From: Halorhodospira halophila SL1
Lineage (GTDB): Bacteria > Pseudomonadota > Gammaproteobacteria > Nitrococcales > Halorhodospiraceae
Assembly (NCBI RefSeq): GCF_000015585.1
Contig: NC_008789.1
Coordinates: 630,001-662,000, forward strand
DNA: 32,000 nt
Reading direction: 5' to 3'
Shown here: piece by piece, positions 2-26,064 of the stretch
Position numbering within the stretch: position 1 is the stretch's first letter
Layout of the letters: each line of letters starts with the position of its first letter
Position numbers and translations under genes: made by a program
Notes under the pieces: generated by a model
What the model was told of the DNA's origin: nothing
Database searches by the model: none
What the model saw: only the letters and a program-made list of their open reading frames with translations

Positions 2-1708
2 ATCCACGAAGGCGACGTGGAAGAGCTGATCGCCGACCCGGTGGAGCACCTGCGCTCGCGGACGACCCTGCGCCACCCGCACCTGCCGCTGCCGTCCGGG
101 ATTTTCGGCCCGGAGCGGGTCAACAGCCGCGGTATCGACTTCTCCAACCGGCAAGAGACCGCCGCCCTGGCTGCTGCCATGACCACCGCCGCCGAGCCTG
201 CCCGCGAGGCGCGGCCGATCATCAACGGCCAGGGCGCCACCGAGGCCGACGGCACCTGGGCCGAGGTCTGCAGCCCCACGGATACCGCCCAGCACGTCGG
301 CCGGGTGCTGTGGGCCGGCCACGAGCACCTGGAGCAGGCCCTAGCCAGTGCCGCAGCGGCCTGGCCGCGCTGGGCCGCGACGCCGGTGGACGAGCGCGCC
401 CGAGCCCTGGAGCGCCTCGCCGACCTCTACGAGGCGCACACCGCCGAGCTGATGACCCTGTGCACCCTGGAAGGCGGCAAGACCCTTAAGGACGGCATCG
501 CCGAGGTGCGCGAGGCGGTGGACTTCTGCCGCTACTACGCCGTCCAGGCGCGGCGGCTGATGGGCGAACCGACCCCGTTACCCGGCCCCACCGGCGAGAC
601 CAACGCCCTGCAGCTGCACGGCCGCGGCACCTACCTGTGCATCAGCCCCTGGAACCTGCCGCTGGCGATCTTCACCGGGCAGATCACCGCCGCCCTGGCC
701 GCCGGCAATGCGGTGATCGCCAAGCCGGCGGAGCAGACGCCGCTGATCGCCCACCGAGCCGTGGAGCTCATGCATCAGGCGGGCATCCCCGGTGACGTGC
801 TCCACCTTCTGCCCGGCGAGGGCCGGCGCATCGGGCCGCCGCTGGTGGCCGATCGGCGGATCGACGGGGTCGCCTTCACCGGCTCGGTGGCCACGGCGCA
901 GCAGATCCACCGCACCCTGGCCGAGCGCGATGGCCCCATCGTTCCGCTGATCGCCGAGACCGGCGGCCTCAACGCCCTGATCGTCGACTCCAGCGCCCTG
1001 CCCGAGCAGGCGGTGGTGGATGTACTGCGCTCGGCGTTCTTCAGCGCCGGCCAGCGCTGCTCGGCGCTGCGCCTGCTGTGCATCCAGGAGGACATCGCTG
1101 AGCCGTTCCTGGCGATGCTGCGCGGGGCCATGGACGCCCTGCGGGTTGGTGATCCGCGCTGGCTGGCCACCGACGTCGGCCCGGTGATCGACAGCGACGC
1201 CCGGGCGCGGCTGGAGGCCCATCACGAGGCGATGGCCGCCGCCGGCCGCGTGGTCCATCGGACACCGCTCGGCCAGGCCGGAGAGCGCGGGCACTTTGTG
1301 CCGCCGTCGCTCTACCGGCTGGATGCCATCGAGGATCTGCAGGAGGAGTTCTTCGGGCCGATGCTCCACTACACCACCTGGCGGGCGGGGGAGCTCGACT
1401 CGGTGGTGGAGCGGATCAACGCCGCCGGCTACGGTCTCACCTTCGGCGTCCACAGCCGCATCGACAGCCACCGGGAGATGGCCACGCGCTCGATCCGCGC
1501 CGGAAACGCCTACGTCAACCGGGACATCGTCGGCGCGGTGGTGGGCTCCCAGCCCTTCGGCGGCGAGGGGCTGTCGGGTACCGGGTTCAAGGCCGGCGGA
1601 CCGAACTATCTGCTGCGCTTCGTCAACGAACGGGTGGTCACCGAGAACACGGCGGCGGCCGGCGGCAACGCCTCCCTCTTCGCCTTGGGGGAGGACGACG
1701 AGGCGTAA
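2..1708 (+). CDS. putA: Bifunctional proline dehydrogenase / L-glutamate gamma-semialdehyde (P5C) dehydrogenase PutA, C-terminal aldehyde-dehydrogenase part. The 5-prime end lies upstream of the window.
   Basis: The frame is open from base 2 with no stop, so the GTG at 17 is only the track's start. The translation has aldehyde dehydrogenase hallmarks (ISPWNLPLAI, FTGS, ETGGLNA, GQRCSA, EEFFGPML, PFGGEGLSGTG) and a PutA-type C-terminal tail (NTAAAGGNASL). Confidence 0.9.
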   Translation: MHEGDVEELIADPVEHLRSRTTLRHPHLPLPSGIFGPERVNSRGIDFSNRQETAALAAAMTTAAEPAREARPIINGQGATEADGTWAEVCSPTDTAQHVGRVLWAGHEHLEQALASAAAAWPRWAATPVDERARALERLADLYEAHTAELMTLCTLEGGKTLKDGIAEVREAVDFCRYYAVQARRLMGEPTPLPGPTGETNALQLHGRGTYLCISPWNLPLAIFTGQITAALAAGNAVIAKPAEQTPLIAHRAVELMHQAGIPGDVLHLLPGEGRRIGPPLVADRRIDGVAFTGSVATAQQIHRTLAERDGPIVPLIAETGGLNALIVDSSALPEQAVVDVLRSAFFSAGQRCSALRLLCIQEDIAEPFLAMLRGAMDALRVGDPRWLATDVGPVIDSDARARLEAHHEAMAAAGRVVHRTPLGQAGERGHFVPPSLYRLDAIEDLQEEFFGPMLHYTTWRAGELDSVVERINAAGYGLTFGVHSRIDSHREMATRSIRAGNAYVNRDIVGAVVGSQPFGGEGLSGTGFKAGGPNYLLRFVNERVVTENTAAAGGNASLFALGEDDEA

Positions 1709-1713
1709 GCGTT

Positions 1714-1968
1714 GAGGGAGCCGGTGGGCAGGCGGTCGACCGTGCTTGCGCGATGCGGCTGACGAAGCCCGGGGGCAGTTCCGTGAAACCGTGGGCGGTG
1801 GGGGCGTGACAACGGCGCTGACGAGCGCACCCCTTCGGGGTCCCCTGCGCTGCTCGGTGCGCTCAATGCGCCGTTGTCACGCCCCCACCGCCCACGGCCG
1901 GAGCACCCACCGGCTCTGGAGCGTTCCGGCACGCAAGCACGGTCGACCGCCTGCCCACCGGCTCCCTC
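1714..1968 (+). repeat. Long hairpin-forming intergenic repeat, copy E1 (mini-core variant)
   Basis: Perfect 37-bp inverted repeat 1714-1750 / 1932-1968. Perfect 28-bp second stem 1791-1818 / 1868-1895. A 9-bp inner stem 1823-1831 / 1856-1864 encloses ggggtcccctgcgctgctcgg, a block shared with E2 and E3. No ORF with coding character. Confidence 0.85.
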
Positions 1969-1976
1969 GCCACTGT

Positions 1977-2957
1977 CTAAGCCTCGTCGTCCAGCCCCTC
2001 GAACAGGGGTGTGGATAGATAGCGCTCGGCGCCAGAGGCGAGGATGACCACCAGACGCTGTCCGGCCAGCTCCGGCCGGGCGGCCACCTGGACCGCCGCC
2101 GACAGCGCCGCCCCACTGGAGATTCCGCACGGGATCCCTTCCAGCCTCGCCACCCGACGGCTCATGGCCAGCGCCTCGTCGTCCGTCACCTGCAGGGTCT
2201 CATCGACCAGGGTGGCATCCAGGGTATCCGGCAGAAAGCCGGCACCGATGCCCTGCAGACCGTGGGGCCCCGGCGCCCCACCGGAGAGCACCGGCGACCC
2301 GGCCGGCTCCACGGCGTAGGCGCGGAAACCGGGCCGGCGCTCCTTGAGCACCCCGGCGATCCCGGTCAGGGTCCCGCCGGTCCCCACCCCGGCGATCAGA
2401 CCGTCCACCGACCCGCCGGTATCGCGCCAGATCTCCTCCGCGGTACGCAGGCGGTGTGCGCGGGGATTGGCCGGATTGCTGAATTGCGCCGGCGTGAAGC
2501 TATCCGGGATCTCCTCGAGCAGAGCCTCGGCCCGGTCGATGGCGCCGCGCATGCCCGCCGCCGGGTCGGTCAGTTCCACCCGGGCACCGTAGAAGGCAAA
2601 CAGCTTGCGACGCTCGGCGGACATGTTCGCCGGCATGGTGAGGATCAACCGGTACCCACGGGCCGCGGCGATGAAGGCCAGGCCAATGCCGGTGTTCCCC
2701 GAGGTAGGCTCGATGAGCGTCGAGCGCCCCGGCGTGATGCGTCCCTCCGCTTCCGCGGCCTCGATCATCGCCAGGGCGATGCGATCCTTCACCGAACTCA
2801 GCGGATTGAACATCTCCAGCTTGGCCAGCAGCTCTGCGGCCAAACCGGCTTCGGCACCCAGGCGCGACAGCCGCACCAGCGGGGTCTCGCCGATGGTGGC
2901 CACGAAGTCGTCGTAGATCCGCCCGCCTTCGGGCGCGGGCGCCTCCATATCGGTCAT
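1977..2957 (-). CDS. cysK: Cysteine synthase A (O-acetylserine sulfhydrylase), PLP-dependent
   Basis: Motifs PLSSVKDR, TSGNTGIGLA, GVGTGGTLTG and ERYLSTPLF. I chose the start at the ATG 2955-2957 (MTDME...) because GGAGG lies 4 nt upstream. The longer ORF start at 3005 has no SD. CysK versus CysM is not fully resolved. Confidence 0.85.
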   Translation of the reverse strand: MTDMEAPAPEGGRIYDDFVATIGETPLVRLSRLGAEAGLAAELLAKLEMFNPLSSVKDRIALAMIEAAEAEGRITPGRSTLIEPTSGNTGIGLAFIAAARGYRLILTMPANMSAERRKLFAFYGARVELTDPAAGMRGAIDRAEALLEEIPDSFTPAQFSNPANPRAHRLRTAEEIWRDTGGSVDGLIAGVGTGGTLTGIAGVLKERRPGFRAYAVEPAGSPVLSGGAPGPHGLQGIGAGFLPDTLDATLVDETLQVTDDEALAMSRRVARLEGIPCGISSGAALSAAVQVAARPELAGQRLVVILASGAERYLSTPLFEGLDDEA

Positions 2958-6958: not shown

Positions 6959-8641
6959 TCAGTTGTCCTGATTGCCCTTCATCTGCTCCTTGAGCAGATC
7001 GCCGAGCTGCGTGGTGCCGGCACTTGGCCCCGGACGGGCGTGCTCCTGCACGGCCACCTGCTCCTCCTCGGCCTCCTGGGCACGCAGGGAGAGGTTGACG
7101 GTCCGGTTGCGACGATCGACGCCGACGAACTTGGCCTCCAGATCCTGGCCCTCCTCGAGGACCGAACGGGCGTCCTCGACGCGCTCCTTGGCCAGGTCGG
7201 AGGCGCGGATGTAGCCCTCGACCCCGCCGCCGACGTCCAGCGTGGCGCCCTTGGCCTCGACGGAGAGGACCTTGGCGTTGACGGTGGCGCCCTTCTGGTG
7301 ATCAGCCAGCCACTGGCTCAGCGGATCCTGCTCGAGCTGCTTGATGCCCAGAGAGATGCGCTCGCGCTCGGGATCGATGGAGAGGACAACGGTCTCGACC
7401 TCCTCGCCCTTGCGGTAGTTGCGCACCGCCTCCTCGCCGGCCTCGTCCCAGGACAGGTCGGAGAGGTGGACCAGGCCGTCGATACCGCCCTCGAGGCCAA
7501 CGAAGATGCCGAAGTCGGTGATCGACTTGATCTGGCCGACCACCCGGTCCCCCTTGGCGTACTTGGCGGCGAACTCATCCCAGGGGTTCGGCTGGCACTG
7601 CTTCATGCCCAGGGAGATGCGGCGGCGCTCCTCGTCGATGTCGAGGATCATCACCTCGACGTCGTCGCCAACGGCCACCAGCTTGGCCGGGTTGACGTTC
7701 TTGTTGGTCCAGTCCATCTCGGAGACGTGGACCAGGCCCTCGACACCCTCTTCGATCTCGACGAAGCAGCCGTACTCGGTGATGTTGGTGACCTTGCCCG
7801 GGACGCGCGCACCCTCGGGGTAGCGCTGGGCGATGGCCTCCCACGGGTCGGCGCCGAGCTGCTTGAGACCGAGGGAGACGCGGTTGCGCTCGCGGTCGAA
7901 CTTGAGGACTTTGACCTCGATCTCCTGGCCGACTTCCACCACCTCGGAGGGGTTCTTGACGCGCCGCCAGGCCATGTCGGTGATGTGCAGCAGCCCGTCG
8001 ATCCCGCCGAGGTCGACGAAGGCGCCGTAGTCGGTCAGGTTCTTGACGATACCCTTGAGGGTCTCGCCCTCCTGCAGCTTCTCGAGCAGCGCCTCGCGCT
8101 CGGCGCTGTACTCCTCCTCGACCACCGCGCGGCGGGAGACCACCACGTTGTTGCGACGGGCGTCGAGCTTGATGACCTTGAACTCGAGGTCCTTGCCTTC
8201 CAGGTAGGTGGTGTCGCGCACCGGGCGGATGTCCACCAGGGATCCCGGCAGGAAGGCGCGGATGTGGCCCAGATCGACGGTGAAGCCGCCCTTGACCTTG
8301 CCGCTGATCTGACCGGACACGGTCTCGCTGTTCTCGTAGGCCTGCTCGAGGGCGCGCCAGGCGTAGGCGCGCTTGGCCCGCTCGCGGGAGAGCCGCGTCT
8401 CGCCGAAGCCGTCCTCGACGGTGTCGAGGGCCACCTCGACCTCGTCGCCGACGCTCACCTCTAGGTTGCCGGCCTCGTCATAGAACTGCGAGACAGGGAT
8501 CACCGCCTCGGACTTGAGACCGGCGTTGACGATCACGTCCTCGTTGTCGATCCCCATGACCTTCGCCGTAACAATGGCGCCAGGCCGCATATCGGTGTTC
8601 GCAAGGCTCTCCTCAAAGAGTTCCGCAAAGCTTTCGGTCAT
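6959..8641 (-). CDS. rpsA: 30S ribosomal protein S1 (six S1 domains)
   Basis: 560 aa beginning [13 protein letters not shown], with repeated S1 motifs (G.V...T.(Y/F)G.FV.L..G..GL.H.S). Confidence 0.97.
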
Positions 8642-9497: not shown

Positions 9498-10832
9498 TCA
9501 GGCGGTGCCGCGATCGTGGGGGCCATCGACCTCAACCCCCATGCCCAGGCGGCGCAGGAGCTCCACGAACCCGGGGAAAGAGGTGCGCACGTTCTCGCAG
9601 GCCTCGATCTCCACGGGCGCCTCGGCGCGCAGGGCGGCGACGGCGAAGGCCATGGCGATGCGGTGGTCGGTATGGCTGTGCACCCGGCCGCCGCCGAGCA
9701 CGGGCTGGCCGACGATGCGCACACCGTCCTCGCGGGGCTCGACGGTCACGCCCAGTGTCTGCAGCCCCTCGGCCATCACCGCGATGCGATCCGACTCCTT
9801 GACGCGCAGCTCGGCGGCGCCGGTGAGCTGCGTCTCGCCCTCGGCGCAGGCGGCGGCGATGAACAGCGCCGGGAACTCGTCGATGGCCAGCGGCACCAGC
9901 TCCTCGGGGATGGCGATACCGCGCAACGCGGCGGAGCGGACGCGCAGGTCCGCCACCGGCTCGCCGCCGACCTCGTCGGTGCTCAGTACCTCGATATCGG
10001 CCCCCATGCGCCGGAGGATCTCCACCACGCCGGTGCGCGTGGGGTTCCAGCCCACGTGGCGCAGGGTCAAGTCCGAGCCCGGGGCGATGCTCGCCGCGAC
10101 CAGCAGGAAGGCGGCCGAGGAGATGTCCGCCGGCACGTCGACGCCGGTGCCGTAGAGCCGCCGCCCGCCTTCGAGACAGACTGTAGCCAGATCGCGGGAG
10201 ACCGGGTAGCCGAACCCCTGCAGCATCCGCTCGGTGTGATCCCGGGTGGGGGCCGGCTCGGTGACGCAGGTGTGGCCCTCGGCGCGCATGCCGGCGAGCA
10301 GCAACGCCGATTTCACCTGGGCACTGGCCACCGGCAGCGTGTAGTCGATGCCGGCCAGCGGGCTGCCGCCGTGGATACGCAACGGCGCGGTGCCGGCGTC
10401 GCTGGTGGTGATCCGCGCGCCCATCTCCGCCAGGGGCTCGGTGACCCGCCGCATGGGCCGGCGGTTGAGCGAGGCGTCGCCGGTGAGCACGGTGTCGAAC
10501 GGCAATCCGGCCAGTAGCCCGGCGAGCAGGCGCATGGAGGTGCCGGAGTTGCCCACGTCCAGCTCCCGGGCGGGCGGGCGCAGCCCTTCCCAGCCCACCC
10601 CGTGCACCGTGACCGCACCCTGCTCCGGGCCCTCGATGGCCACCCCCAGGGCGCGGAAGACATCGATGGTCGCCAGGACGTCGGCCCCCTCCAGCATCCC
10701 GGTGATCCGTGTCGTGCCGTCGGCCAGGGCGCCGAGCATCACCGCCCGGTGGGAGATGGACTTGTCCCCCGGCACCCGGGCCTCGCCGTGCAGGGCCCCG
10801 CCCGGGGCAACCCGCCAGTTTTCGCCCTCCAT
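9498..10832 (-). CDS. aroA: 3-phosphoshikimate 1-carboxyvinyltransferase (EPSP synthase)
   Basis: Start ATG 10830-10832 (MEGENWRV...). Motifs PGDKSISHR, GNSGTSMRLL, RPM.R and HTDHRIAMAF. The upstream part of the 742-aa track ORF is an out-of-frame read-through over tyrA. Confidence 0.95.
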   Translation of the reverse strand: MEGENWRVAPGGALHGEARVPGDKSISHRAVMLGALADGTTRITGMLEGADVLATIDVFRALGVAIEGPEQGAVTVHGVGWEGLRPPARELDVGNSGTSMRLLAGLLAGLPFDTVLTGDASLNRRPMRRVTEPLAEMGARITTSDAGTAPLRIHGGSPLAGIDYTLPVASAQVKSALLLAGMRAEGHTCVTEPAPTRDHTERMLQGFGYPVSRDLATVCLEGGRRLYGTGVDVPADISSAAFLLVAASIAPGSDLTLRHVGWNPTRTGVVEILRRMGADIEVLSTDEVGGEPVADLRVRSAALRGIAIPEELVPLAIDEFPALFIAAACAEGETQLTGAAELRVKESDRIAVMAEGLQTLGVTVEPREDGVRIVGQPVLGGGRVHSHTDHRIAMAFAVAALRAEAPVEIEACENVRTSFPGFVELLRRLGMGVEVDGPHDRGTA

Positions 10833-10837
10833 TGCGC

Positions 10838-11713
10838 TCACGAGCGGCCCTCCAGCAGGCGCAGGAAGCCGGCGCGGGCCTCCTGGGCGTTTTCGAAGAC
10901 ACGCAGGACCTGCTCGTCGTCGCCGGCGGCCAACGCATCGGTCAGCCGCCCCAGGTCCTGCTGGTACCGGCGCAGCGCCGCGACCAGATGGTCGCGATTG
11001 GCAGTACAGATATCCCGCCACATGGCCGGGTCCGAAGAGGCGATGCGAGTGAAGTCCCGGAAGCCGCCGGCAGCGTACTCGAAGATCTCCTGACGATCGT
11101 CCCAGCCGGCCAGGGCATCCACCAGCGCGTAGGCCAGCGCATGCGGCAGGTGGGAGGTGGCCGCCAGCACCTCGTCGTGGTGGTCGGCCTCCATGCGCAC
11201 GACCTGCGCACCGGCGGCGCGCCACATGGCGGCGACCCGCTCCACGGCGTCTTGCGGGTTCTGCGGCGTGGGGGTCAGGATCACCCGACGCCGGTCGTAG
11301 AGTTCGGCAAAGGCGGCCTCGACGCCGCTGTTCTCGGTGCCGGCGATGGGATGGCCGGGCACCAGCCACGGCGGCGGGGTACCAAAGACAGCCCGGGCAT
11401 CCTCGACCACCGAGCCCTTTACGCTGCCGGCGTCGGTAACCACGGTCCCGGGCTCCACCGCATGCTCCAGGGCGGCAAAGACACCGCGCATGGCACGCAG
11501 GGGGACGCAGATCACCACCAGGTCGGCCCCGGCGGCGGCTTCGGCCGGATCGTGACAACCGCGGTCGATCACCCCCAGGGCCTGGGCCCGCTCCAGGTTC
11601 TCGGCGCTGCGCCCGCAGCCGATCACCTCCTCGACCGCCCCGCTGCGGCGCAGCGACAGGGCCAGCGAGCCGCCGATCAGGCCGACGCCGATGATGGCCA
11701 GACGCCGGATCAC
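10838..11713 (-). CDS. tyrA: Prephenate dehydrogenase
   Basis: The GTG start 11711-11713 overlaps the hisC stop (GTGA). Contains IIGVGLIGGSLALSL (Rossmann), GHPIAGTE and HDEVLAATSHLPH. It is separate from aroA, with its own stop 5 nt before the aroA ATG. Confidence 0.9.
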   Translation of the reverse strand: MIRRLAIIGVGLIGGSLALSLRRSGAVEEVIGCGRSAENLERAQALGVIDRGCHDPAEAAAGADLVVICVPLRAMRGVFAALEHAVEPGTVVTDAGSVKGSVVEDARAVFGTPPPWLVPGHPIAGTENSGVEAAFAELYDRRRVILTPTPQNPQDAVERVAAMWRAAGAQVVRMEADHHDEVLAATSHLPHALAYALVDALAGWDDRQEIFEYAAGGFRDFTRIASSDPAMWRDICTANRDHLVAALRRYQQDLGRLTDALAAGDDEQVLRVFENAQEARAGFLRLLEGRS

Positions 11714-12855
11714 GCCGCGCCTCCATGCAGCTGCCGGGACAGCGCGGCCAGGAAGGTGCGGTTCTCCGTCGGCGTGCCGACGCTCACCCGCAGGTGTCCG
11801 GGCAGGTCGTAGGCGTCCACCGGGCGGACGATAACGCCGCTGCGCAGCAGCCCCTCGTTGAGCTCGGCAGCCCGCGCCCCGGCGTCGAAGGTCAGGAAGT
11901 TGCCGGCGGACGGCAGGGGGACAAAGCCCAGCTCCTCCAGCCCGCGGCGCAGCAGTGCACGCTGCTCGGTGTTCAGCGCCACCGAGCGCTCCAGGTGCTC
12001 GGCATCGGCCAACGACGCCGCCGCCGCGGCCTGCGCCGGACCCGAGCAGTTGAAGGGCTGACGGACCCGGTTCATCAGCTCGGCCACCGCCGGGTGCGAC
12101 AGGGCGTACCCGGCCCGCAGCCCGCCCAGGCCGTGGACCTTCGAGAAGCTGCGGGTGACGATCAGATTCGGGTAGTCGTCGAGCCAGCGGCTGGCGTCCG
12201 GATAGTCGGCCTCCTCCACCGCGTACTCGAAGTACGCCTCGTCGACCACGGCCAGGGTCCGCGCCGGCACGGCGTCGAGGAAGCGACGCAGGGCCTCGGC
12301 CCCGACCCAGGTGCCGGTGGGGTTGTTGGGATTGGCGACGAAGACCACCTGGACCGTATCGTCGGTCGCCGCCGCCATGGCCTCCAGGTCGTGGCCGCGG
12401 GGCTGCGCCGGGTGATCGGCAGCGAGCGCCGGCACCACCCGCGCCTCGGCCCCCACGGCCTGGGTCACGATCGGATAGACGGCGAAGGCGTGCGCCGAGA
12501 ACACCGCGCACCGCCCGGGACCGAGGAAGGTCTGGGCCACCAGGGCGAGGACATCGTTGGAGCCGTTGCCCAGGGTGACCCGCTGCGGGTCGATGCCGTG
12601 GCGCTCGGCGATGGCGTGGCGAAGCTCGAAGCCGTTGCCGTCGGGATAGCGGTGGCCTTCCTGCACCGCCGCGGCAGCGGCCTCGGATGCCCGGGGCGAG
12701 GGCCCCAGCGGATTCTCGTTGGAGGCGAGTTTGATCACCTCCTCGACACCGTACTCGCGGCGCAGCGCCTCGATGGGCTTGCCCGGCTCGTAGGGAGCGA
12801 GCCCGCGTACGCCCGGGTTGGCCTGTTCGAGGAACGGGGGTTCGGGTACAGCCAT
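11710..12855 (-). CDS. hisC: Histidinol-phosphate / aromatic aminotransferase (class II)
   Basis: LASNENPLGPSP, YPD..G..LR, NPNNPTG and SFSKVHGLGGLRAGY (PLP lysine). Confidence 0.9.
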   Translation of the reverse strand: MAVPEPPFLEQANPGVRGLAPYEPGKPIEALRREYGVEEVIKLASNENPLGPSPRASEAAAAAVQEGHRYPDGNGFELRHAIAERHGIDPQRVTLGNGSNDVLALVAQTFLGPGRCAVFSAHAFAVYPIVTQAVGAEARVVPALAADHPAQPRGHDLEAMAAATDDTVQVVFVANPNNPTGTWVGAEALRRFLDAVPARTLAVVDEAYFEYAVEEADYPDASRWLDDYPNLIVTRSFSKVHGLGGLRAGYALSHPAVAELMNRVRQPFNCSGPAQAAAAASLADAEHLERSVALNTEQRALLRRGLEELGFVPLPSAGNFLTFDAGARAAELNEGLLRSGVIVRPVDAYDLPGHLRVSVGTPTENRTFLAALSRQLHGGAA

Positions 12856-20692: not shown

Positions 20693-20939
20693 CCCGGAAG
20701 CGGCCCCGCACCCGCCGGGGGGTGATCGGGCTCGCCGAACGCGCCCCGGCGGGGTCCCCTGCGCTGCTTGCCCGCGCAGGGCCGCGCGCAAAGGAACGGC
20801 GCTGGAGCGCCGTTCTGCGCTGCGCGCTGACCAGCGCGAACCAGGAAAGGTTCGCGCTGGCCCCCTGCTTGGGCTGCGCTGCTCGGCGCGTTCGGAATGC
20901 GCCCGATCACCCCCCGGCGGGTGCGGGGCCGCTTCCGGG
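20693..20939 (+). repeat. Long hairpin-forming intergenic repeat, copy E2 (full core)
   Basis: Perfect 39-bp inverted repeat 20693-20731 / 20901-20939. An 11-bp inner stem 20735-20745 / 20885-20895. The core has internal hairpins at 20794-20815 (10-bp stem) and 20831-20860 (12-bp stem, loop aggaaa). Direct repeats of ctgcgctgct lie at 20759-20768 and 20874-20883. Confidence 0.9.
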
Positions 20940-24832: not shown

Positions 24833-25684
24833 ATGAGCCCAAGCCACATCCCTCCCGAGACCCTGGCCCGCGCGGCGCCGCCAGGCTCGAGCCTGGACTA
24901 CGCCCTGCGCCTGGCACCGGCGCACCAGCGCGAACCGCTGCAGGCCATCGCGGCGTTCACGGGCGAGATCCGGCGCATCCCGTGGCATACCCAGGAGGCC
25001 GAAGTCGGCCGCGCCACGCTGCACTGGTGGCGCACCGAGCTGGCCCGGATCCTCGAGGGCGGCGGGCAGCACCCGCTGGCGGCGCCGCTGGCCGCTGCAG
25101 TGCATGAGCACCAACTCCCGGGCGCGGAGCTGCGCGCGATCCTCGATGAGGCGGACCGTGCGCTGGACGGCGACCGGCCGGAGACTTTTCCCGAGCAGCT
25201 CCGTCTGGCCGAGCGCCACGCTGCGGCCCCGCTGCGTCTGGCAGCGCAGGTGCTGGTCGGCGACGCTAGCGCCACTGGGTACGCCACGGCCCTGGGCAGC
25301 GCTGTCGGGCTCACCCGCAGTCTGCGCCTGCAGGGGCTGGCTGCGCGCTACGGCGACAGTGATCTGCCCCGGGAGACGCTGCGCCAGGCCGGGGTGCCGG
25401 CGGAGGGGCCGTTGCTCCAGTCCGATGGCACGGCCCTGCCCTCGTTGCTTCGGGCGCTGGCCGTGCAGGCCGATGCCATCGCGCCGTTGTTTCCGGCGGC
25501 GCGCGGGCAGGCGCCGGAGGACCGTCGGCGGGTGGCTGCCTTGCGCCCGGTGACGGCGTACGCTGCGCTGCACCAGGCGCTGATCGCGGAGATCCTGCGC
25601 CGCGGGCCGGCGGAGCTGATCCGTGGCCGGCTGACGCTCACGCCGTTGCGCAAGGTGTGGGTCGCTTGGCGGGGGCAGCCGTAG
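24833..25684 (+). CDS. Squalene/phytoene synthase (SQS_PSY) family protein with degenerate Asp-rich motifs; function unknown
   Basis: GSSLDYALRLAP..R..L.AIAAF...I aligns with the family N-terminus (GSSFYY.F.FLP..R.A..ALYAF.R..DD..D), but the DDxxD position reads GEIRRIP. The second motif position reads RSLRLQGLAARYGDSDLP instead of N(I/L)LRD(V)GED...GR.YLP. Confidence 0.6.
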   Translation: MSPSHIPPETLARAAPPGSSLDYALRLAPAHQREPLQAIAAFTGEIRRIPWHTQEAEVGRATLHWWRTELARILEGGGQHPLAAPLAAAVHEHQLPGAELRAILDEADRALDGDRPETFPEQLRLAERHAAAPLRLAAQVLVGDASATGYATALGSAVGLTRSLRLQGLAARYGDSDLPRETLRQAGVPAEGPLLQSDGTALPSLLRALAVQADAIAPLFPAARGQAPEDRRRVAALRPVTAYAALHQALIAEILRRGPAELIRGRLTLTPLRKVWVAWRGQP

Positions 25685-25687
25685 CCC

Positions 25688-25904
25688 CCGGCCGCAGGCC
25701 CCGGGCCGGATCTTTGCGGACGCGCCGAGCAGCACAGCCCAAGCAGGGGGCCAGCGCGAACCTTTCCTGGTTCGCGCTCTGGTCAGCGCGCAGCGCAGAA
25801 CGGCGCACCAGCGCCGTTCCTTTGCGCGCGGCCCTGCGCGGGCGAACAGCACAGGGGACCCCGCAGGGGCGCGTCCGCCGATCCGGCCCGGGGCCTGCGG
25901 CCGG
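25688..25904 (-). repeat. Long hairpin-forming intergenic repeat, copy E3 (full core, inverted relative to E2)
   Basis: Perfect 25-bp inverted repeat 25688-25712 / 25880-25904. A 10-bp inner stem 25717-25726 / 25868-25877. By my manual alignment, the reverse complement of 25717-25877 aligns to E2 20735-20895 with about 8 substitutions and one 2-nt indel. Confidence 0.9.
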
Positions 25905-26064
25905 AGGGCGGCTGCTCGCGTTACCCACGAGGCCCGCTGGCAGCGCTTGCCTGCCGGGCGGCTCTCACCCCTTCTCCCCTGCATGGGCAGCAGGTTGCGA
26001 AACCGGTAAAGTAGATGCAGCAAATGCGACCCCGTCGGCCACCACAGACCGCGAGAGCAGGCCC

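Follow-up and report, generated by a model that had tools for sequence, protein, structure and literature searches.

Results

A compound palindrome runs across the 3' ends of putA and cysK

The putA and cysK genes of Halorhodospira halophila SL1 converge on a compound palindrome, here termed E1, within a 32,000-nt stretch of the genome (the window, to the whole of which all coordinates given for SL1 refer). The window begins within putA, which codes for a bifunctional proline dehydrogenase / pyrroline-5-carboxylate dehydrogenase; orthologous full-length PutA has 1055 amino acids, with PRODH, Pro_dh and Aldedh domains. The product of cysK, cysteine synthase A, is 100% identical to ABM61342.1 / WP_011813365.1. 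It can be seen from the translations that PutA ends ...NASLFALGEDDEA and CysK ends ...STPLFEGLDDEA, both proteins carrying the tail -DDEA (the cysK stop codon is TAG on the minus strand, seen as CTA at 1977-1979).

In putA the codons concerned, G GAC GAC GAG GC, make up a 12-mer, GGACGACGAGGC, the exact reverse complement of which is found at the end of cysK (Table 1). The two 12-mers sit 9 and 12 nt outside a pair of perfect 37-nt arms, and the stop codons fall in the mismatched bubble between. These features had been described in an original prediction made from the letters of the window, and all of the coordinates and open reading frames were verified. The interval from stop to stop in SL1, 268 nt, constitutes E1, and a gapped alignment of its left half with the reverse complement of its right half spans 1674 to 2008. 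The inverted arms are able to pair within one strand, and the region is predicted to fold as a single hairpin that takes in both 12-mers (RNA -266 kcal/mol, z = -16.8; DNA -154 kcal/mol; z below -14).

The shared tail is part of the inverted repeat in all five E1 alleles

Four further junctions carry E1, namely those of Halorhodospira sp. 9621 (locus L002), of a metagenomic lineage represented by loci L090, L091, L092 and L105, and of loci L101 (GCA_020740245.1) and L102 (GCA_016653275.1), the last two of which encode an identical CysK protein (P0362). Five alleles were compared (SL1, 9621, L090, L101 and L102). All four of the alleles from outside SL1 are longer, with spacers of 380-390 nt; over all alleles E1 measures 270-390 bp. 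As judged from the loci compared, E1 is specific to the H. halophila clade.

Both PutA and CysK end in -DDEA in every one of the five alleles. In the four non-SL1 alleles PutA ends GAG GAY GAC GAG GCG TAA and CysK ends CTG GAY GAC GAG GCG TAR; in SL1 the alanine codon of cysK is GCT. When the ten half-elements were aligned, the tail, stop codon, linker and outer arm formed one unbroken inverted repeat in all five alleles, with the PutA and CysK tails agreeing at 14-15 of 16 positions, about as well as the arms do. The drift that the tails have undergone since the alleles diverged amounts to GAC/GAT on either arm, GCG/GCT and TAA/TAG.

The CysK tail, unlike most of the PutA tail, is found only with E1

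A more distant lineage, represented by L004, L098, L099 and L100 and with a cysK of approximately 77% nucleotide identity, has no element at this site. Its putA and cysK genes overlap by 4 nt at CCCTAGGA, and the junction reads …GAG GAC GAC GAG CCC TAG GAA TCG CCG TCC…. PutA ends -GEDDEP (GAG GAC GAC GAG CCC TAG) and CysK ends -LDGDS (GAC GGC GAT TCC TAG), and the longest run common to both tails is 5 nt, which is background level. We ruled out that the L004 junction is an assembly chimera, as it recurs in four assemblies from different samples, and also that it is a deletion of E1, as none of the E1 alleles could have given rise to its 14-nt joint CCCTAGGAATCGCC. A CTAG-type overlap of 4 nt between convergent stop codons is seen more than once where cysK ends; the partner is an ADH gene in H. 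halochloris (L005 5478-5481) and putA in the element-free lineage (L004 5484-5487).

Two further lineages have neither putA nor E1 at the site, and here CysK ends -GEGS (or -GEGG) and -DEDGSAAAG. In the two Halorhodospira lineages without putA (L003 5497-5868 and L007 2290-2475) a small membrane open reading frame and an SSF (putP-like) transporter gene come directly after cysK, which makes putA an accessory gene here. The tails of PutA from close relatives were read from DNA loci; a protein search with the last 300 amino acids of PutA gave only fragments of at most 66% identity and no Halorhodospira PutA. None of the 80 distant gammaproteobacterial loci from a contig search with a 742-amino-acid protein (9498-11726) was a Halorhodospira locus reaching cysK.

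Among the relatives compared, EDDE with identical codons is present in PutA without E1, whereas -DDEA is found in CysK only alongside E1. The element-free CysK tails resemble one another (…G…S) rather than DDEA. The length of the CysK tail is the same, four residues after LFEGL, whether or not E1 is present, and the change is therefore a replacement and not an extension. It had been proposed that the repeat templated the ends of both genes and gave at least one of the proteins a new C-terminal tail. Very probably one tail, most likely that of CysK, does derive from the repeat; that of PutA has EDDE in the same codons without any element, and what CysK gained was not an added tail, three residues having been replaced at equal length. 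Orthologues of both proteins ending in -DDEA in genomes without the element would make the shared 12-mer ancient or coincidental: most of the PutA tail is indeed found there (-EDDEP), and the CysK tail is not, being -DGDS, -GEGS or -DEDGSAAAG instead.

The putA gene of the element-free lineage is itself a mosaic: its overall identity to the L090 type is 97% and reaches 100% over 600 nt, but is only 91-93% in the last 300 nt. Its 3' end looks native to that lineage. A putA identity of 97% beside a cysK identity of 77% (L004 and L099 against L090) indicates a recent transfer or recombination of putA between co-occurring Halorhodospira lineages, among which recombination evidently is frequent.

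The arms of E1 evolve in concert and its interior inverts

The two arms of one genome resemble each other more closely than do orthologous arms from different genomes. The outer arms of SL1 match at 37 of 37 positions, and the orthologous arms of the other alleles have at least 4 mismatches and differ from those of SL1. Seven sites in the 30-nt inner arm vary across the five alleles, and at six of these the change is mirrored in both arms of every allele. Likewise a second palindrome of the window, E2, has arms that match at 39 of 39 positions in SL1, yet its arm is only 82% identical to that of a relative of 91% identity (L097), in which the core of E2 is approximately 97% identical. The arms are actively kept alike.

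Related genomes also carry the interior of E1 in opposite orientations. The whole of it, with core, inner arms and bubbles, runs one way in SL1, L090 and L102 and the other way in 9621 and L101, the breakpoints falling within the outer arms, and L101 and L102 have opposite orientations despite encoding an identical CysK. Arm homogenisation, spacer inversion and the clustered replacement of up to five adjacent coding residues are signatures of template switching between inverted-repeat arms (PMC8604942), which keeps repeats perfect in proteobacteria (PMC5941160) and expands inverted-repeat arms (PMC13100816). Homologous recombination between arms of such length would be an equally good candidate (PMC5941160). 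We found no support for the arms having been copied from a prior local spacer, since in element-free relatives the sites of E1 and E2 hold only 0-48 nt of spacer, which is unrelated, although at ~80% divergence this is a weak test.

The shared tail in comparison with chance expectation

For the chance tests, genes were taken from the window and picked by their GC content at third (GC3) and second (GC2) codon positions. In-frame identity over 12 nt between different SL1 genes had P = 2.9e-6 per position pair, which is about 50 times the uniform expectation yet small. Across 153 stop-aligned SL1 gene pairs the longest identical run was at most 6 nt, except in putA/cysK, where it was 12 nt. We also paired 118 CysK homologues with 117 PutA homologues, all from outside the clade: the last four residues were alike in none of the 13,806 pairs and the last three in 0.1%. 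CysK homologues commonly end ...LFEGL[D/E]..., with one distant homologue ending ...LSDEA, and PutA homologues end ...L[GQ][ED][ED]..., a few with DEA near the C-terminus.

A third copy of the 12-mer lies within cysK, where SL1 CysK has QVTDDEAL and its closest relatives have QVEDAEAL. This copy is probably a chance near-relative of the conserved EDAEAL motif, although it may have been templated from the nearby tail copy (the inverted match 1693-1733 / 2144-2184 is at 71%), and it shows that D/E/A-rich strings of this sort arise fairly easily in the GC-rich SL1 genome. The weaker symmetry further in, CCCTCTTCG / CCCTGTTCG, which had been noted in the original prediction, codes for the family-conserved PutA ..ASLF.. 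and CysK ..PLFEG..; it is kept at 8 of 9 positions in a relative without the palindrome and is therefore not part of the repeat.

E1, E2 and E3 share a core, and E3 also covers a gene end

Three such elements are found within the window. E1, E2 and E3 share a core with terminal repeats of 9-11 nt around CCYNNCGGGGTCCCCTGYGCTG, the core sequence being GGGGTCCCCTGYGCTG and the conserved core of the repeat family approximately 46 nt long, while their long arms are unrelated to each other. The terminal repeats vary in mirrored fashion from element to element (GAGCGCACC / GGTGCGCTC in E1, GAACGCGCC / GGCGCGTTC and GGACGCGCC / GGCGCGTCC in the others). By virtue of terminal inverted repeats of 9-11 nt, mirrored differences and three copies in 32 kb, the core resembles a miniature inverted-repeat transposable element (MITE), with several dispersed copies; no target-site duplication was evident around the whole of E1, E2 or E3.

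The core has a long form in E2, in E3 and in all E1 alleles other than that of SL1; in this form an insert of approximately 115 nt made up of several hairpins is flanked on both sides by the direct repeat (C)TGCGCTGCT. E1 of SL1 alone has the short form, which is consistent with a deletion between the (C)TGCGCTGCT repeats; alternatively, the insert may be a nested small mobile element with its target-site duplication. The inserts fall into two subfamilies, an E1 type and an E2/E3 type (centres of L090, L101, L102 and L002; window 20732-20900).

The left arm of E3 (25675-25726 against 25868-25915) takes in the end of the upstream gene, which belongs to the SQS_PSY family: the final two codons lie within the arm, together with the TAG stop, which forms a 3-nt bubble. 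The product ends ..AWRGQP in SL1, as compared with ..AWRGRIAAT in a relative of 80% identity, which suggests that a palindrome has rewritten the end of this gene as well. The left end of E3 has the tetranucleotide GTAG, as does the CysK-side stop codon in L090, L101 and L102; the putA side, the cysK side of SL1 and E2 lack it.

E2 is absent in relatives of 78-81% identity, in which spacers of 24-48 nt take its place, and approximately 40 kb from Halorhodospira relatives at that level of identity contained no comparable palindromes. A BLAST search of plasmids with the element gave no match. Rfam gave none at the gathering threshold, the only sub-threshold matches being to generic miRNA hairpin models. 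Nothing among 1.84 billion representative proteins matched the E2 core when it was searched as a peptide, and the literature on Halorhodospira palindromic repeats yielded nothing relevant. No terminator-like sites were found in 1500-2200, and a canonical intrinsic (rho-independent) terminator was ruled out for E1, as it has no U-tract.

Several metagenome or draft contigs end inside E1 or E2 (the end of L097, at 2362, and the starts of L103 and L104). Assembly from short reads is thus interrupted by the palindromes, and metagenome-assembled genomes probably contain too few of them. Elsewhere in the window, three direct repeats with a period of 261 nt at 7333-7930 correspond to the S1 domains of ribosomal protein S1, encoded on the minus strand at 6959-8641, and are ordinary.

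Table 1. Positions of E1, its parts, the flanking genes and related elements in the window
Feature	Position	Strand	Remarks
putA, 3' part	2-1708	+	Open reading frame; bifunctional proline dehydrogenase / P5C (pyrroline-5-carboxylate) dehydrogenase; window begins within gene; stop TAA 1706-1708
PutA tail 12-mer (..DDEA)	1693-1704	+	Judged the native copy; same codons in element-free L004, L098, L099, L100
Left linker, with putA stop codon	1705-1713		Mismatched part of palindrome
Outer left arm, 37 nt	1714-1750		Perfect match to 1932-1968; orthologous arms in relatives imperfect
Left asymmetric internal segment, 'type a' bubble	1751-1788		On opposite side in strains 9621 and L101
Inner left arm, 30 nt	1789-1818		Perfect match to 1868-1897
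Central core, short form, 49 nt	1819-1867		9-nt terminal inverted repeats; repeat family also in E2, E3
Inner right arm, 30 nt	1868-1897		Perfect match to 1789-1818
Right asymmetric internal segment, 'type b' bubble	1898-1931		
Outer right arm, 37 nt	1932-1968		Perfect match to 1714-1750
Right linker, with cysK stop codon	1969-1980		3-nt insertion relative to left linker in all alleles, just after stop
CysK tail 12-mer (..L DDEA)	1981-1992	-	Exact reverse complement of PutA tail 12-mer; judged the converted copy (outgroup tails -DGDS, -GEGS, -DEDGSAAAG)
cysK	1977-2957	-	Cysteine synthase A; 326-amino-acid form WP_041595022.1; 323-amino-acid form ABM61342.1 begins at 2948
Third copy of 12-mer, inside cysK (TDDEAL)	2173-2184	-	~0.01 copies expected from shuffles
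E2 compound palindrome	20693-20939		Same core family (long form); own perfect 39-nt arms; between convergent Na+/H+ exchanger gene and mtnA
E3 compound palindrome	25675-25915		Core inverted relative to E2; own perfect 28-nt arms; between tandem genes

Discussion

Two unrelated enzymes of H. halophila share a C-terminal tetrapeptide, and the nucleotides that encode it are continuous with a palindrome whose arms homogenise. Given that continuity in five alleles, one of the two proteins very probably owes its last residues to the repeat. It is most likely that the last three residues of CysK were rewritten, at the same length, to mirror PutA, and that the acidic tail of PutA is native. On balance we think it probable that this came about through homogenisation of the E1 arms spreading over both stop codons; the direction from putA to cysK, the molecular mechanism and the selective neutrality of the change are what we infer from the sequence comparisons.

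The history that we favour would begin with a compound palindrome that arose or inserted between the convergent putA and cysK genes in an ancestor of the H. halophila clade. Its arms would continually be made identical by homogenisation at the level of DNA, either by polymerase template switching ('quasipalindrome correction') or by recombination / gene conversion between the arms, and the same process would also flip the interior. The homogenised tract would then, in the ancestor of the clade with E1, have grown outward past the two stop codons, with its anchor in a G GAC that was already common to putA and cysK for family reasons (PutA …GE-D, CysK …GL-D). The last three codons and stop of cysK would thereby have gone from approximately GGC GAT TCC TAG to GAC GAG GCG TAR, at least four substitutions in 9 nt. 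Relative to the element-free lineage this is a clustered change, GGC GAT TCC being replaced by GAC GAG GCG to match putA, with a polarity that comes from few outgroups, one of them with a mosaic putA. The change was probably neutral, with a probably small effect on PutA and CysK themselves, since the tails vary within both families.

Several points weigh against this history. Its polarity depends on a single outgroup lineage with putA next to cysK, and the putA of that lineage is a mosaic, so that its PutA tail is not a fully independent witness. On the tree E1 and CysK -DDEA each arose once, and their association is therefore a single evolutionary event. The last codon of putA differs between the two states (CCC and GCG), so that the putA side, too, must have changed at least once. 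The tails have gained no clear mirrored substitution since the divergence of the five alleles, only one shared C/T synonymous polymorphism on either arm. Lastly, endings of the -DEA type are native in a few distant CysKs, as in ..LSDEA.

An alternative that would leave both tails foreign is that a palindromic mobile element with termini containing ..GACGAGGCGTAR inserted into the overlapping ends of putA and cysK. The gene end covered by the arm of E3, with a tail unlike that of its orthologues, fits with this, as does the position of GTAG in three alleles and E3, since GTAG-tagged repetitive extragenic palindromes (REPs) are known to extend over the ends of open reading frames and to provide their stop codons (Di Nocera et al. 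2013, PMC3733652). The last codon of both genes (GCG, or GCT in SL1 cysK) also differs from the element-free CCC and TCC. However, the codons GAG GAC GAC GAG are present in PutA where there is no element and acidic tails are found across the wider PutA family; the 37-mer, 30-mer and 12-mer have no other copies beside elements in the window, the arms of E2 and E3 being unrelated and lacking any such 12-mer; and both proteins keep their exact ancestral length, which an insertion deleting 14 nt would manage only by luck. We regard this origin of the tails as unlikely. It is also very improbable, in our judgement, that the tails were selected for RNA structure, a longer hairpin being favoured as a bidirectional terminator or 3'-end stabiliser and compensatory tail mutations being fixed for pairing. 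The predicted hairpin is certainly very stable and takes in both 12-mers, E1 and E2 lie between convergent genes, and E3 is at a gene 3' end, though followed by a gene on the same strand; REP-like elements in such positions are able to make mRNA more stable (PMC3733652). Against this, 12 additional base pairs on a paired stem of about 100 bp would be a negligible gain, there is no U-tract or terminator-like site and no match to an Rfam family, and the long arms of SL1 are perfect Watson-Crick matches with no G-U wobble, which, with an interior that flips between strains, points to a process acting on DNA.

Coincidence is not an absurd explanation, as both families prefer short acidic tails, the strong GC3 bias would give the same codons, and the 12-mer would abut the palindrome simply because the stop codons do. 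The family tails given above, one of them with DEA at the end of a distant CysK, lend this some credence, as do the emergence of a third 12-mer at the conserved EDAEAL motif and the demonstrably coincidental inner 'LF' symmetry. We nevertheless consider it distinctly unlikely, at roughly 1e-4 per pair, uncorrected for the handful of convergent pairs in the window. No pair of family members shared four final residues, the one stop-aligned run above 6 nt among 153 SL1 gene pairs belonged to putA/cysK itself, in five alleles the identity carries on past the stop codon and along the linker into the arms, and the element-free lineage has no such identity.

The outward spread of arm homogenisation that we prefer has close parallels. 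In template-switch homogenisation of inverted-repeat arms in coding DNA (Ripley-type quasipalindrome correction; Abraham & Hazkani-Covo 2021, PMC8604942; PMC5941160; PMC13100816) the arms are likewise homogenised, the spacer inverts and clusters of several residues are replaced without insertion or deletion. E1-type arms differ in that they are long (30-39 nt perfect, ~140 nt in total) with a repeat-family core of 49-166 nt between them, and in that the tract spans two convergent genes and both of their stop codons, leaving unrelated proteins with a shared C-terminus; at this arm length RecA-type recombination would be as plausible as polymerase switching. Large inverted repeats, such as those of chloroplasts (cited in PMC5941160), also have arms that are near-perfect within a genome despite divergence between genomes, and show both spacer orientations among close relatives. 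E1 is on a scale of hundreds of base pairs rather than kilobases to megabases, and its arms end inside two different genes. Arm-to-arm gene conversion and spacer flip-flop are likewise known from the palindromes of the human Y chromosome.

E1-E3 are similar to the REP, BIME and REPIN families (PMC3733652; Nunvar et al. 2010, PMC2817692) in being GC-rich intergenic hairpin modules, mosaic or nested, that follow gene 3' ends, and in having the stop codon inside the repeat, on both sides for E1 and on one side for E3. The architecture is the reverse, however: in REPs the palindromic unit is a conserved high-copy sequence, whereas E1-E3 have a conserved centre and long arms that are specific to the locus, and in the window the arms are unique and only the central core recurs, three times. 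Rickettsia palindromic elements and in-frame MITEs (PMC3733652, PMC2229807) are comparable in that a palindromic repeat supplies coding sequence; those elements add an inserted peptide, whereas E1 adds no residues and replaces three terminal ones.

E1 illustrates clearly, in a bacterium, a mutational process that is already known; it is not a new kind of system. A broader proposal, which we offer tentatively and consider doubtful, is that the H. halophila clade has undescribed intergenic 'growing palindromes', in which a small mobile core would seed long arms, particular to each locus, that correct themselves to perfection, flip their interior and extend outward, routinely rewriting the 3' ends and stop codons of neighbouring genes. 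If true, palindromes would be altering the C-termini of proteins throughout the genome and the present case would not be a one-off, with E1 acting on both sides and E3 on one.

The comparative data indicate that an intergenic palindrome, as it is homogenised, can run past stop codons and leave two enzymes of unrelated families with an identical tetrapeptide at their C-termini. Standard tests would read a clustered change of several residues of this type as convergence or positive selection, and annotation pipelines are blind to it. With their perfect arms and inverting interior, the long palindromes of Halorhodospira would be a convenient natural system for the study of inverted-repeat dynamics in bacteria.

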